A stretch of DNA of 64,000 nucleotides from Eledone cirrhosa (taxonomy: Eukaryota): positions 14,322,001 through 14,386,000 of the forward strand of contig OZ024746.1 in assembly GCA_964016885.1 (NCBI GenBank). The letters run 5' to 3'. Numbering within the stretch: position 1 is the stretch's first letter; each line of letters starts with the position of its first letter. Shown in pieces: positions 9,738 through 58,116 of this stretch. The notes under the pieces were generated by a model. That model worked only from the letters and a program-made list of their open reading frames with translations. It searched no databases and was not told the origin of the DNA. Both the position numbers and the translations under genes were made by a program.

Positions 9738-11119
9738 CAGTGACGGACTGGCCAGGTTGCCTAATGGCAAGTGGGCCCCAGGGAGCCCACGGTAACATTG
9801 CAAGGGCCCACAGTAGCATTGCAGGGCCCACTGTAGTATTTTAGGGGCCAATGCTTTGCTTTCAAAAAATACCTGGAATCTAAGAGAAAGAAAATTTTTT
9901 TTTTTAATAAATAAAACACTTAAGCAAAGTATTTGGTCAACCAATTCCCTAGGGGATTACTAGAAACCAAAATATACGATAGTACAAATAGCTGGAATCA
10001 GTGGTTGTTCATTCTACTAAAGCTTAGTGTATTCATTCATGCAAACATACATATATAGACACAGACACACAAGCATATACATATTTATTTATATATAACG
10101 AAGGAGTTGTGGTAAGGAACAAGATGGACCATAATGCACCAGAGTACTCAATACTTAGGGTAGTAAAGTGGGTAATAGGAAAATGTATAACCCCGACGGC
10201 AGAGCTCAAGCCGTTTCGACGGCTATTTCTGGAGTAGTCCAGAAATAGCCGTCGAAACGGCTTGAGCTCAGCCGTCGGGGTCCTACTCGTTCCTATTACC
10301 CACTCTACTACCCTAAGTATTGAGTACTTTGGTGCATTATGGTCCACCTTGTTCCTTACCACATTTCCTTCGTTATATATATATATACACACATACATAT
10401 ATATATATATATTGAGTGAGTGTGAAAGACCAAAGGTCATTATTGAAAGTCTCTGGATTTCGCAAAATAATAATATTTTTTATTGGAGAAGGTAAGATAT
10501 TTTCCCGCAAAAATGTGATTGCACTGTTTTGTTTCCAATTATGTATTTTTTTTTAAATGTTATTTATTCATTATAATAATTAAATGATACCATTCTATAT
10601 GTAGGTGGGCCCCCTTCATTTGGCAACCAATATTTTTAGATCTAACATTAAGAAAGACATGAACGACACAACAACACTTTGTTTTGAATGTTTTGAAAAT
10701 TTTGAAAGTAGGTTTATAAGTATGAATTTTCATCAGACTTTCGTAGTTGTTTTTGTGGCCTAGCGGTAAATGCTAGAGGCGGTGGATATCCTGCCCTTGG
10801 GTTCAATCCTGGTCAAGAGGTATATGTAACCGTTTTCAGTTTTTATTTTACAATCCATAGACAAAAACTGAAAAGGTTTACTGGGAACCCTACTCCCGAC
10901 CAGGATCAAACTTAAGTCTCTGGATTTCGCAAAATACATAATATTTTTATTGGAGAAGTTAAGATATTTTTACGAAAAAATTTAGTTGCGCTGTTTTGTT
11001 TCCACATGTATTTTTCGAAAATGTTATTTATTCATTATAAAAATTAAATGATAACATTCTATATGTAGGTAGGCCCCCTTTATCTGGCAACCAGTATTTT
11101 TAGACCCAGTCCGCCACTG
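9738..11119. mobile_element. Non-autonomous hAT-type DNA transposon (MITE) with nested insertions
   Basis: TIRs CAGTGACGGACTGG (9738) and CCAGTCCGCCACTG (ends 11119). Flanks ATTAACAT and GTTAACAT match 7/8 as an 8-bp TSD. No transposase. Confidence 0.8.
10097..10374. mobile_element. Palindromic insert in (TA)n; each arm carries the 3' half of a hammerhead (probable head-to-head Penelope pLTR ends)
   Basis: 137-bp arms around a GTAG loop (10234-10237). Right arm reads GAAA-CGGCT-TGAGCTC-AGCCG-TC-GGGGT. Confidence 0.7.
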
Positions 11120-11875
11120 GTTAACATGCAAACGTTTCCCTCTAAGCAGTTTTAATTATGATCATATCACAGTGATCTCGGTAGCCGTAGAGAACGCAAG
11201 ACACTAGTATTTCAGGATTTCTTATCTATCATTTATGAATCATTTGGTAATGAGATTAGAATAAGCTCAGTATTATATACTTTTTTGTCTACAGCATATT
11301 CACGTTTACAAAATTGATGGTTGGTGATTCTTTCAAGCGAAAATATTTCTATAGCCTCTTCATTGTAGGCCACCCATTTCCGGCTAGAGTTCTCGCGTGT
11401 ATCAACGTAGTGGTCACCCCTCCACCTCCATTAGCATTCTATTTCATAATAATAAGAATGTCTACTTAAAAAAAATAACAACATTCAATTCGCCATATAA
11501 TTCGTCCTTCTTTACACTAATATCCGTGGACATCTGTCCAAATTTCATCCCCCCCCCCCTCCTTGACTCCCACTGACACTAACAACATTGTTTTTCTCTG
11601 GTATAACTGTTTTATCATTGAACTTATATATGATACTTGCACATCCTTCTGAGATGTGGTGCCTTCCCTGATGTGGTATCTGTTATGTATATCACTTTTT
11701 ATTCTGACCTGGATATCAGGAACAAAAACCTCCATTTACTCTGTATAAAATAACTTCTGAGATATTTCTCCTCTTAGTTAATCTACTGTCACTACAGCTA
11801 TACAAACACCACGCCTGTTGCAATCCTCCTCATCCTCATCCTCAGGGGAACAACGCCTTCTCTATTCTGTCCGCC

Positions 11876-12040
11876 GTGACCGCGGGGCGACCAGCGGATG
11901 GACCCCATTTACTCATAATAGTGAGAGATGGGGAGAGCAGGAGAGGCGGAGGCAGTGACAGCGGGGCGACCAGCGGATGGACCCCATTTACTCATAATAG
12001 TGAGAGATGGGGAGAGCAGGAGAGGCGGAGGCAGTGACAG
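11876..12040. repeat. GC-rich 79-bp tandem repeat, about 2.1 copies
   Basis: GTGAC starts at 11876, 11955 and 12034. Confidence 0.9.
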
Positions 12041-14075
12041 TGGGAGCTTTGTTCCTTTGTGTTCAGACCCGGTGTGTATGTATATGTTTCACAGACACAC
12101 ACTCACACTATGCAGACATTGATGTCGCAGCCGAATATTTTGCCCTTATCAATCGTTTGACTAGTTAATATATCTTATCCGTGTTCTTCACTGATGAACT
12201 AACCCAGCAATTACTTTTAATATTTTTTCGTACCAATTAGAAGTCGCAAATTTATGAAACCATTAACATCTCTACTGCATATAATTATCTGCTTAATAAT
12301 AAATAATATATCTTCTAAATCATTAGATGTACTTTGTGAAACTAACATCAAAATATGTAATTTAATAAATAATAAAATAAAATGTGTATCAATCTTTACA
12401 ATTAGTTGAATTTCACATTTTTTTTTAAATTACAAATTGAAAGGAATAATATGTTATTATTGCATATGCAAAGAAATATTTTGGTCGGTATAACAAATAA
12501 TATAGATTAGTTGAAATAAAAAACATATTCAATATACAAAATCTCTCATTATCATGATATCATGATATCATATAAAAATTATTCAGCAGTATCTAATAAT
12601 TTTGAATATAATAGTTTTGAATATTTCTGTCGTTTATTGAGTGATATACACAAGGTTTATACTGTGATATCGTTTGAATTTTCTATATATCTCACGGAGA
12701 AGAAGCTTCAACATCAATTTCTATTGCACACAAAATGCAAAATTGTCTGCATTATTTGCTTTTCATATGTAATATGAGCATATTACATATGCTCATATTA
12801 CATATGCTCATATTACAACATATTACAATTTCATATTACAACTATGCTCACGTGCCTCAAAGAGAGTTATAAGCTTTATATCATTTGTGATTGAGCGTTG
12901 GCTTTGATTCGCTTAATTTACATTGCTGAGTAACACAATCAACTACCCTCTATATAGACGGTGCCTGGTGTTTTCTAAGAAATCAATATTACAGAAAAAA
13001 TGTAAGCTCTATACTCTTGTCTAAAGAACTTCAACCAATTAGATGCTATTTATAGACATTTATCACCATTCTGATTAAGCCTTATGACAACATACAATTG
13101 TGATCCTACTCGCAACTATTTGTCTCCTACATATTCAATAGTCATTATCATATCGAGTGTTTCTGTAAAAATAAAATGTCTAATCAATTTTAAAATTCTA
13201 CAGCAGTTATCGGTGATTCATTTTAATTGTATTTTGCAAGAAATCTATAGGATAAAAATATGTATTATTTTTAGATTTCCGAAATACTAATGCAGTTAAA
13301 TTAGTTAACAGTATTGATTAAAACAATAAATAAATTAAAACAATAAACTGATGTTCTTTTATTAATTAATAAACGTATAATAGAATAACACGGCTAAATA
13401 TTTCATTTATTGTTTTTTAATGAGAGAACGAGTGGGATTTAAAATAATTAAAAATGAAACGAAATACTAAAGAATAAAAAAATATATTATATGAATTTTG
13501 AATTACAAAAGATTCATATCATACAGTTGGTGTTTGGTTTGAGAAAAATATTTATAGCATTCAACTAAATTAATATATCTCGACTATGAAAGATTGAACA
13601 AAACGAAAATTGTGTATTTTGTTACATAGTTCTATTTGCTTGATAGGTGATATTGTCTGAGATTATATATTAAAACTGAAGAAATGCATTATGATACTCT
13701 GGTTTTATATATTATGTTTTTATTTAGCAGTTTGAGGTGGTAGAGTTTTGATTTAATGAGTGATTGGTAAGAAGATCTGTGAACCAAGCTCAATGAGGTC
13801 TTTCGCTAGAGTCACCTGTCCCTGGTGAAGTGACGATCCTACCTTCCTTTCTCGAAACCCTCTATGTCATAGTTTACTTTTACAACCTAATATTTAGATG
13901 AATTGAACTTGGGACCGATTCTCGACAAGACAGATACAACTGAGTAGAGGTTGCTGTCGATGGCACCAGCAGGTTTATATATATATATATACACACATAC
14001 ATATATACATATATATGTATGTGTGTATACATATATACATATACATACATATATACATATATATACATATATAAA

Positions 14076-14267
14076 ATAATTGTTTCTACTTTTGGCACAA
14101 GGCCAGCAATTAACCAGTACAACACTGGTAGTTTATTTTATCGACCCCGTAAGTATGAAAGGCAAAGTCAACCTCGGCGGGATTTGAACTCAGATCGTAA
14201 AGGGACGTAACTATGCTGGAAAGCATGGCGTCCGACGCTCTACCGATACTGCCAATCCACCGCCCTT
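14076..14267 (-). mobile_element. tRNA-derived SINE (family A)
   Basis: Minus strand shows A box TGGCAGTATCGG, B box GAGTTCAAATCC, central GCCTTTCAT..CGGGGTCGATAAAA domain (resembles Meta/MESC SINE core, from memory) and an ATT tail. Many copies in the window. Confidence 0.9.
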
Positions 14268-57075: not shown

Positions 57076-57822
57076 GATGGAGGGGCAGAAAGTAGTGAAG
57101 GTGAAGTAGTTGGAGGAAGAAAAACGTAGTAGAATAAGAAGAGGACGATGATGGAGGAAGAGAATAATAGAAAAGTAGGTAATAATAGAGAACGAGGAGA
57201 TGAATAAGAAGGGACAGGAAGGGAAAGTAGGTGGTTTTCTTTTTTTTGTTTTGTTCCGTAGACTTTTTAGAAAACATACACCAATTGTTCTTCTAGCCAA
57301 AGGTTTTTACCAAAGTATATATATATATATATATATATATATATATATATATATATATATATACATGTATATATATATATGGTGTAGATTAATGTCAAAT
57401 GTAATTTTTATATCGATATTATTTGGGCATCTACTGATGAGTTTATAAGAGGCCGCTTGTGTATAAAACTATGGATTATATACAAGTTTCTACATAACCT
57501 GGACATGATTTATCCCAAATTGTAGAAATCTTATAACGAAACGATCGTCTGGAAGGAAAGAGATATTTATTTAATTATGTTTCATATAAAATAATACAAC
57601 CAGCTATCCACGAAATACTGATTAGTTAGCACCCCAAACACTAAATTGGGAAAATACTTAGGTATATCCTAATGTTTGTTGAGTGAGATGAAGTTGGTCA
57701 GAGTATCGCTTAAGGCTTTCTCTGTTAATGTATTAAATATATATATATTTCTCTCTCTCTCTCTATATATATATATATATATATATATATATATATATAT
57801 ATATATATGTGTGTGTGTGTGT

Positions 57823-58003
57823 ATATTAATAAAAGGAATTCCAACTTTGTCTGATTTACTCGTTTTATTTACAATCCTTTAAAATTTATAATGGTATTAG
57901 AATGAAATAGTATGGTAGAATATTAAATGTTAAGTGTTAATTGAACAAGTACTTTCATGCTTTCGCAATCTTCAGGTTCATAATGTGTGGTGACAGTCAA
58001 GTT
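57823..58003 (-). mobile_element. Solo pLTR/retrozyme-like fragment with a hammerhead
   Basis: Near-identical to the arms of 46494-47003; flanked by microsatellites. Confidence 0.8.
57942..57980 (-). ncRNA. Minimal type I hammerhead with palindromic stem III
   Basis: TGAAC-CTGAAGA-TTGC-GAAA-GCAT-GAAA-GTAC-TT^GTTCA. 5-bp stem I, GNRA-capped stem II, AGTACT palindrome. Confidence 0.8.
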
Positions 58004-58031
58004 TATATATATATATAGGAAAAGAGTCAGA

Positions 58032-58116
58032 ACCCGACGGCTGAGCTCCGGCCGTTTCAATATCTAGATTCAAACGGATCTACCTGTCGAAACAGCCAGA
58101 ACACAGCCGTCGGGGT
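58032..58116. repeat. Short diverged palindrome of the same half-hammerhead family as 10097-10374
   Basis: CCCGACGGCTGAGCTCCGGCCGTTTC ... GAAACAGCCAGAACACAGCCGTCGGGGT. Confidence 0.7.

Follow-up and report, generated by a model that had tools for sequence, protein, structure and literature searches.

The question raised by this locus is why a 64,000-nucleotide (nt) stretch of Eledone cirrhosa contig OZ024746.1 (hereafter the window; AT-rich animal DNA from a 3.0-Gb assembly) carries seven palindromes in or beside (TA)n tracts, and what sets the point at which each of them inverts. In the initial annotation a new head-to-head integration system was proposed, in which two complementary DNAs (cDNAs) are primed from RNA 3' ends on both strands and joined at a hammerhead ribozyme. 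Rather than a new integration system, the feature represents an insertion type that is already known: published accounts (PMC3846280, PMC8557442, PMC4209133) cover inverted pseudo-long terminal repeats (pLTRs) of Penelope-like elements (PLEs) set head to head with palindromic junctions, tails on one side only, a bias towards (TA)n and hammerheads in the pLTR. The palindromes are probably paired short pLTR copies that were primed from both strands and ran off at the front end of the RNA, a reading built on the family identity of the arms, two fixed outer ends, the pairing of a long with a short arm, a cluster of inner ends, a TATA register and an extra G. The breakpoint bias is real, and is likely set by the RNA front end rather than by the ribozyme.

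All seven inverted repeats were recovered by masked self-BLAST of the window where the initial annotation had placed them, with arm identities of 92.0% over 137 aligned bases (10.2 kb), 98.3% over 58 (28.9 kb), 81.4% over 70 (32.7 kb), 97.8% over 90 (35.2 kb), 98.3% over 173 (43.8 kb), 98.9% over 90 (46.8 kb) and 77.5% over 40 (58.1 kb). Since paired arms have diverged from each other, a sequencing fold-back artefact is not the expected source. The arms read outward in all seven cases, as had been claimed, and (TA)n adjoins every palindrome on at least one side, which upholds TA targeting. The estimate of about six sequence families also held: A (10.2 and 58.1 kb), B (32.7 kb), C (46.8 kb), D (28.9 kb), E (35.2 kb) and F (43.8 kb). 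Inner ends are numbered below from +1, which was set by eye for each family as its commonest inner end.

10097..10233, minus strand: family A arm (Hydra-type pLTR by motif), long form with tail; inner end +3; subfamily differs from that of its partner
10235..10374, plus strand: family A arm, long form; inner end −1; only the 3' half of a hammerhead motif (GAAA at 10254-10257, predicted cut site after 10276)
28842..28900, minus strand: family D arm, tail only (family positions 100-159), no hammerhead
28892..28960, plus strand: family D arm, tail only (90-160); the central (AT)n coincides with an AT-rich stretch of the element
30921..32573, minus strand: broken Hydra-like reverse transcriptase (RT)/GIY-YIG remnant; a TA tract lies between it and the 32.7-kb palindrome
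32602..32802, minus strand: family B long arm (Neptune-type pLTR by motif); inner end +4
32730..32766, minus strand: entire minimal hammerhead motif, as sequence, with U3-A8 core, within the family B long arm; core identical in 34/34 copies
32808..32877, plus strand: family B short arm; inner end 3 nt past the predicted ribozyme cut
35154..35268, minus strand: family E short arm; inner end 5 nt past the T-loop A of a tRNA-like head; no hammerhead found
35266..35414, plus strand: family E long arm with a tail of ~60 nt
43615..43817, minus strand: family F arm (Neptune-type by motif); inner end 2 nt short of the predicted ribozyme cut
43817..43991, plus strand: family F arm; inner end 27 nt past the cut; outer end the same as its partner's
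46493..46828, minus strand: short arm of family C, which stops within stem I of a minimal hammerhead motif with canonical core (46825-46811); split by the repeat at 46582-46763
46582..46763, no strand: ~180-bp repeat with a B-box-like motif (likely a short interspersed nuclear element, SINE; ~10 window copies) inside the left arm
46826..47050, plus strand: tailed long arm of family C; inner end +4; shares 3 nt of microhomology with the other arm; hammerhead core replaced
57827..58004, minus strand: single family C arm with an entire hammerhead motif (core 57975-57961), beside the 58-kb palindrome
58015..58120, no strand: decayed palindrome of a family A relative, whose left arm is the short one; inner ends of the two arms, read by eye, no more than ~5 nt from +1

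The palindrome density of the window is normal for this genome: 66 palindrome-like repeats were counted in 53 stretches of 10 kb (530 kb), spaced over the genome except that one stretch had been picked near a family A match, and 51 of the 66 have (TA)4 within 120 bp. Thirteen were assigned to families A-F and 53 to other families; among the latter, hammerhead-like cores were seen in the arms of several (L155, L045, L126) and family E-like sequence in the centre of one (L159).

For the family analysis, 374 loci were fetched (1.52 Mb after overlap merging, window included) and arms were aligned to natural long copies. For family A, 428 of 441 arms were kept, those dropped lying <150 nt from a locus end or scoring low; 6-7 reference copies whose upstream sequence was unrelated or whose junction looked odd were left out or capped, and the first family B arm counts, which held spurious TA-tract matches, were refiltered before the breakpoint tally. 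Exact k-mer matches genome-wide numbered 57,218 for A (19-mer at +13..+31), 13,200 for B, 7,245 for C, 40,579 for D, 1,063 for E and 1,615 for F, and tight head-to-head family A pairs (spacer ≤30 nt) numbered 10,873.

The supposed origin from Penelope pLTRs stood for five of the six families, and not for family E: judged by sequence, the five have the linked open reading frame (ORF) and the hammerhead motif of endonuclease-containing (EN+) PLEs, and family A shows their partially tandem pLTR with tail. Family A is the pLTR of an element with a 710-amino-acid RT/GIY-YIG endonuclease ORF (L149); in L148 its pLTR and tail continue into the ORF, and in L031, L146 and L149 an inverted long arm and a short arm stand head to head around ORF pieces. 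ORF matches lie ≤2 kb upstream of long A arms in up to 13 loci, by a filter that may admit neighbouring elements; family D has a linked ORF in 6 loci, and families B, C and F have upstream ORF pieces in L044, L188, L191, L283 and L279. Pfam gave no match for the four PLE proteins tested, and identification was made by motifs. The L149 ORF shows RWR (instead of RWK), DKT, a CxCX5C linker, no CCHH, and CxxC and CxH near its end; the D-linked ORFs show Hydra endonuclease motifs, with the linker and absent CCHH in L330, L151 and L339 and CxxC and CxH in L151. By these protein motifs families A and D appear to be Hydra-type PLEs; a Neptune label for family A was dropped, its motifs fitting Hydra. 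Both a CX2-5CxxC linker and an endonuclease CCHH occur in L188 and L191 (C) and in L283 (F), and L044 (B) has a cysteine pair and histidines with the linker frameshifted, so that B, C and F are assigned to the Neptune type by motif only. A TA flank within 30 nt was found for 399/431 A arms and 76/99 D arms, against 986/10,600 random 30-mers. As a parent of the 32.7-kb palindrome, the ORF remnant at 30.9-32.6 kb was discounted: a TA tract intervenes, and the remnant is not of the family B type.

The family E unit is ~290 nt long, occurs in tandem and has a tRNA-like head (tRNA called in 5/6 loci); no hammerhead core on the sense strand of the unit and no ORF match upstream of long E arms were found. 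It inserts like a PLE and, on its sequence, is not classed as one. Two fixed outer ends, (TA)n flanks and head-to-head pairs were noted for it in the window (35154-35414) and in L200, L201, L208, L209 and L222. Of its 41 listed inner ends, 6 lie no more than 1 nt from the base that follows the T-loop A, and 8 are close to the tRNA 3' end. Family E would likely use the same PLE machinery, of which it is possibly a SINE-like passenger; a tRNA-like unit riding PLE machinery was not evident in the titles and abstract openings of the literature searched.

Inner ends are far from uniform, as the initial annotation had supposed. Truncated arms end at −5..+8 in 285/387 cases for family A (uniform expectation 25.8), 28/53 for B (3.5), 20/37 for C (1.9) and 29/59 for D (5.5), and the next 94 nt upstream of the cluster hold 11, 4, 0 and 14 ends, respectively. 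Among family A arms found without targeting, 44/80 end at −8..+8; genome-wide, a 27-mer reaching back to −11 has only 5,065 matches versus the 57,218 of the 19-mer downstream of +1. Family B loose ends stand exactly at +1 in two raw-read runs of other samples (173 and 169 reads). For family A the raw-read depth step was not used, as read ends pile up at AATT, probably at restriction cuts of a restriction-site-associated DNA library; the contig depth step, which is free of this problem, is ~20-fold in X1 (which may be the source sample) and ~10-fold in X5 (another species label).

The cluster keeps a register with a TATA-like box. TATAAAA/TATATAA begins at −30 in 6/6 B copies and at −31 in 7/7 C copies, and TATTTA(A/T) at −29/−31 in 7/9 A copies, against a TATAWAW background of 124/14,301 windows (0.9%); the tight family A inserts themselves are without the box. 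The +1 of A and D resembles the insect initiator consensus. At inner ends of family A, G is the first non-templated base in 19/24 arms that end at +1 versus 21/89 at neighbouring positions (Fisher p 1e-6); it occurs on short (8/9) as well as long arms (8/11), and the extra G was also seen in 2/2 family D arms. In L1 insertions, capped 5' ends are recognised by an additional G (PMC11702581); Drosophila Penelope has an established promoter in its pLTR (PMC2377424), and a TATA box plus initiator has been noted in rotifer pLTRs (PMC3846280).

With the ribozyme, the cluster keeps no register: +1 lies upstream of the predicted cut by a distance that varies by family (A 41, B 72, C 73, D 46 nt). The proposal that cDNAs join at the ribozyme as a rule was thus not borne out, the main cluster matching a likely transcription start. 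Ends at −3..+4 of the predicted cut are in excess in B (7/21, expected 1.6, p 6e-4) and F (5/26, expected 0.9, p 2e-3), and no such excess was seen in A (5/87), C (2/17) or D (2/15). For A this fits a transcript that starts inside the ribozyme and could not cut its own front end. In one family F locus (L296), the stretch spanning the predicted cut is present three times in short pieces, as though copying had restarted at the cut.

Hammerhead motifs had been claimed for four centres, and parts of such motifs lie at or near all four, with differing completeness. The inserts at 10.2 and 58.1 kb retain just the 3' half (GAAA, stem III, GUC) and lack the core, whose place is ~40 nt upstream; at 32.7 kb a whole U3-A8 motif is found in one arm, with the centre ~35 nt upstream of the motif; and of the two arms at 46.8 kb, one stops within stem I while the core is gone from the other. 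The centre at 43.8 kb, for which none had been named, has one arm ending 2 nt before the predicted cut, and those at 28.9 and 35.2 kb are not at a hammerhead. Core tallies gave U3-A8 for A (UUGANAA, 20/22), B (34/34) and F (15/16), a core type described in Schistosoma PLEs (PMC4209133), the canonical CUGAAGA for C (35/43), and for D CAGAAGA with A at position 4 (38/45) or CUGAAGA (4/45). Because of the A at position 4 and the lack of an end excess at the cut, family D (~40,000 k-mer matches) suggests an inactive ribozyme in a successful family. In family A, stem II is ~55 nt long (paired by eye), and the tight palindromes hold only the part downstream of its middle, hence no whole ribozyme. 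When folded without constraints, B formed both hammerhead stems I and II, C formed stem I but another inner stem, and A, D and F did not adopt a hammerhead fold. An Rfam scan of the window had no hammerhead family among its 150 best matches, which were filled by microsatellite matches to microRNA (miRNA) models. The canonical CUGANGA was also sought upstream of family A and set aside, as the 30 of 38 matches examined were mostly palindrome junctions or chimeras and the real core of the family is U3-A8.

Family A arms have their outer ends at two fixed sites, ~+58-61 and ~+138-141, where loose ends in TA tracts also occur among reads from other samples. Of 174 family A pairs, 2 have two long arms, 6 have two short arms, and the other 166 combine a long arm with a short one; the long/short pairing was also seen in two less biased subsets of A (25/28 and 60/61), in D (22/27) and in E (12/16). 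Since both outer sites are internal and the element runs on from them into the ORF, arms do not begin at RNA 3' ends, and priming from such ends, as initially proposed, is not supported. An enzyme with fitting properties is known in vitro: the Anolis Poseidon PAc protein cuts and extends both strands, and its two internal starts define the tail (PMC11167929).

Paired family A arms are identical over an 11-mer in 70/108 pairs (16% expected), with a mean of 1.5 differences versus 4.0 in shuffled pairs; this shared subfamily points to one source copy, or to one cDNA. The 92 parsed junctions (31 with microhomology, 15 blunt, 46 with insertions) are the mix that end joining should give. In reads and contigs from other samples, strand-switch joints occur with non-overlapping or partly overlapping sides, one side lying at −4..+7 in 10 of the 13 listed. 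Five loci (L065, L059, L075, L326, L162) have family A arms fused, at +1 or close to it, to pieces of other families with hammerheads, in either relative orientation; L065, L059 and L075 had been chosen by hammerhead pattern.

In the best-supported mechanism, which we propose here, the element's enzyme would nick both strands within (TA)n and both DNA ends would prime reverse transcription, one at the upstream internal start (giving the short arm) and the other at the downstream start (giving the long arm with the tail). Both cDNAs would be copied from RNA of one source copy and would run off mostly at the capped transcription start, sometimes at the ribozyme-cleaved end; as the start sites lie only ~60-260 nt from the RNA front end in the upstream pLTR, frequent run-off there would be expected. 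The two cDNA ends would then be sealed by end-joining repair, either blunt, with 1-6 nt of microhomology or with short insertions. From the initial proposal this retains the two cDNAs primed from both strands, which are favoured by the farther-reaching short arms and non-overlapping pairs described below and by the G on short arms.

A number of observations weigh against this reading. That the cluster is a transcription start and that the G comes from a cap are both matters we infer from DNA; the TATA-like box is found in 0/6 reference copies of family D, and there is no G excess at the chosen +1 of B (0/4) and C (1/6). About 5 of the 19 G cases may be the first base of a re-started fragment, and the G control was tallied by hand, with 4/89 of its positions unable to show a G by construction. 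Inner ends spread over ~15 nt and 87 family A ends lie further downstream; the sample of 428 family A arms is enriched in palindromes through the choice of loci. Within the window, long/short pairing fails at 10.2 and 28.9 kb (two long arms each) and at 43.8 kb (equal outer ends). The agreement of arms in subfamily is also predicted if a single cDNA folds back.

This last alternative, in which one cDNA is copied back on itself and an endonuclease trims the second arm at a fixed short site, is the published reading of Penelope junction palindromes: self-priming was put forward as a guess (PMC3846280), while the origin of PLE inverted ends is stated as open, and the tail ascribed to endonuclease resolution, in PMC8557442. 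It would account for the same-subfamily arms (70/108 pairs) and for the perfect short palindromes at some centres. Fold-back needs the short arm to lie inside the long one, however, and so explains neither the 53/166 pairs in which the short arm reaches at least 3 nt beyond the long arm nor the pairs in which the long arm is confined to the tail (12 were flagged, of which L062 and L074 look mis-parsed, an error that counts against us and leaves ~10); the latter, having no arm overlap, are a class that already contradicts it. Together with the extra G on short arms (8/9), the single head-to-head join of families A and F in L162 and the two subfamilies in the 10.2-kb arms, this makes self-priming an improbable source. 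That both strands prime and the cDNAs halt at a folded or cleaved hammerhead, so that the ribozyme sets the breakpoint, we consider rather unlikely. No main cluster is more than ~75 nt away from a hammerhead cut (that of A falls within the long stem II, that of D at stem I), and ends are in excess at the predicted cut in B and F; yet A, C and D lack that excess, the main cluster of B and C is ~40 nt upstream of the core, a stall predicts neither the extra G nor the TATA register, no clear read-depth step was seen at the B cut, and the same structures occur in the hammerhead-free family E.

It is very improbable that the palindromes are fixed-end DNA elements of the type of miniature inverted-repeat transposable elements (MITEs), or that they arose afterwards by rearrangement, either from two separate insertions or when long inverted copies underwent cruciform deletion. 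In favour are outer ends that are fixed and abut TA, the existence of long inverted copies spaced 2-5 kb, and the two-long-arm cases at 10.2 and 28.9 kb, each of which could represent two events. Against this, centres vary from copy to copy, so that ordinary TA-duplicating MITEs, which the initial annotation had set apart, are not what is seen; the two outer ends are different fixed sites, in 166/174 pairs. Arms belong to RT-coding elements, and lone arms beside (TA)n end at the same +1. The first 100 family A matches include 19 close head-to-head pairs (spacer ≤32 nt) and, within 100 nt, not one tail-to-tail pair; neither a transposase-type terminal repeat nor identical centres across loci were seen.

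Two-strand priming with front-end run-off could be part of a larger cycle, an idea to which we give little credence: a Penelope pLTR may act like a U3-R-U5 long terminal repeat, with a target-primed strong-stop cDNA made from the tail to the cap and then jumping to the ribozyme-cut RNA 3' end. The start-to-cut stretch would be common to both RNA ends, the jump would be needed for a full copy, and the palindromes, in their tens of thousands, would have arisen where it failed from both strands. If true, a single cycle would account for pLTR, tail, inversion and hammerhead. No trace of a carried-over cap G was found: among copies that read through +1, just 8 have a purine at −1 (4 A and 4 G, with a single 5-kb cluster supplying three of the G cases) versus 5,065 templated, a weak test, since the base could be trimmed.

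In its layout the feature resembles the published EN+ PLE insertion unit (PMC3846280; PMC8557442), which is likewise head to head, with a tail on one arm only, a pLTR with putative TATA box and initiator, and microsatellite targets that mask target-site duplications. It differs in that both arms are here often only 50-250 nt long, with ~10^4 copies for one family, that tails are ~60-85 nt rather than 30-40, and that inner ends are clustered and carry an extra G. With the Hydra clade (PMC8557442), the A ORF motifs, the D-linked endonuclease motifs and the (TA)n setting are common; the paper reports canonical hammerheads, whereas A has U3-A8 and a long stem II in which the likely start site is located, and most D copies have A at position 4. 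Its supplementary file S2 lists Hydra hammerheads and may cover the present families. Families B, C and F are likened to the Neptune clade by motif only, the B-linked linker being frameshifted.

The Anolis Poseidon PAc system (PMC11167929) is alike in its two internal RT starts and in the cutting and extension of both strands, with uncleaved RNA as its template; in the available text of that paper no link is drawn to inverted pLTR formation or to run-off at an RNA 5' end. L1 twin priming (PMC11702581) is alike in that second-strand priming leads to an inversion resolved by end joining and an extra G reports copying to the cap. L1, however, starts from the poly(A) end and from internal sites that vary, and duplicates little, whereas both starts are fixed here, and, unlike in L1, the arms usually copy the same stretch, which gives a palindrome. 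Non-long-terminal-repeat retrozymes (bioRxiv 10.64898/2026.07.22.740005) are also short, protein-less units related to PLE pLTRs and often tandem, as is family E. They are direct tandems with a whole hammerhead per unit, while here pairs are inverted and often hold half a ribozyme, with none in E; no same-strand pair within 600 bp was found among the first 100 A matches, and E is tandem but hammerhead-free. Neither a link between the PLE inversion point and the transcription start nor a twin-priming proposal for PLEs was found in a literature search that covered mostly papers outside subscription, in their main text.

With ~10^4 independent junctions per family in one genome, the models become separable by counting, and the counts favour two-strand priming with front-end run-off. 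The B and F arm ends at the predicted cut would indirectly indicate germ-line cleavage by U3-A8 minimal hammerheads. At ~125 palindrome-like repeats per Mb there is a risk of false MITE or miRNA annotation, and the Rfam scan gave a sub-threshold miRNA match at 28.9 kb. If transcribed by read-through, the palindromes would be a possible source of double-stranded RNA.

Other repeats were recorded in the window. A broken Hydra-like PLE (29475-29941 and 30921-32573, minus strand) has a 232-bp direct repeat at its 3' end and relatives at 50607-50907 and 51092-51141, and more family D pieces lie at 36112-36343. A 170-bp inverted repeat of another family (36627-36934 / 38473-38642, 97% identity, ~1.7 kb apart, beside (ATT)n) encloses an RT-associated ORF remnant at 37510-38205. 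Short palindromes of 43-50 bp, which the initial annotation had left unlisted, lie at 7901-7949, 12764-12817 and 40703-40750. SINE-like copies of ~180 bp were found at 14063, 23812, 38980, 42276, 42477, 43055, 46582, 53147 and 62552; since one of them splits the left arm at 46.5 kb, that copy is younger than the palindrome. Two decayed RVT_1 elements, likely of long interspersed nuclear element type, occupy 18946-22291 and 44275-45768 (both plus strand), a TA-rich tract lies at 24 kb, and a satellite array with a 49/98-bp period and ~96% identity fills positions 1-7852.

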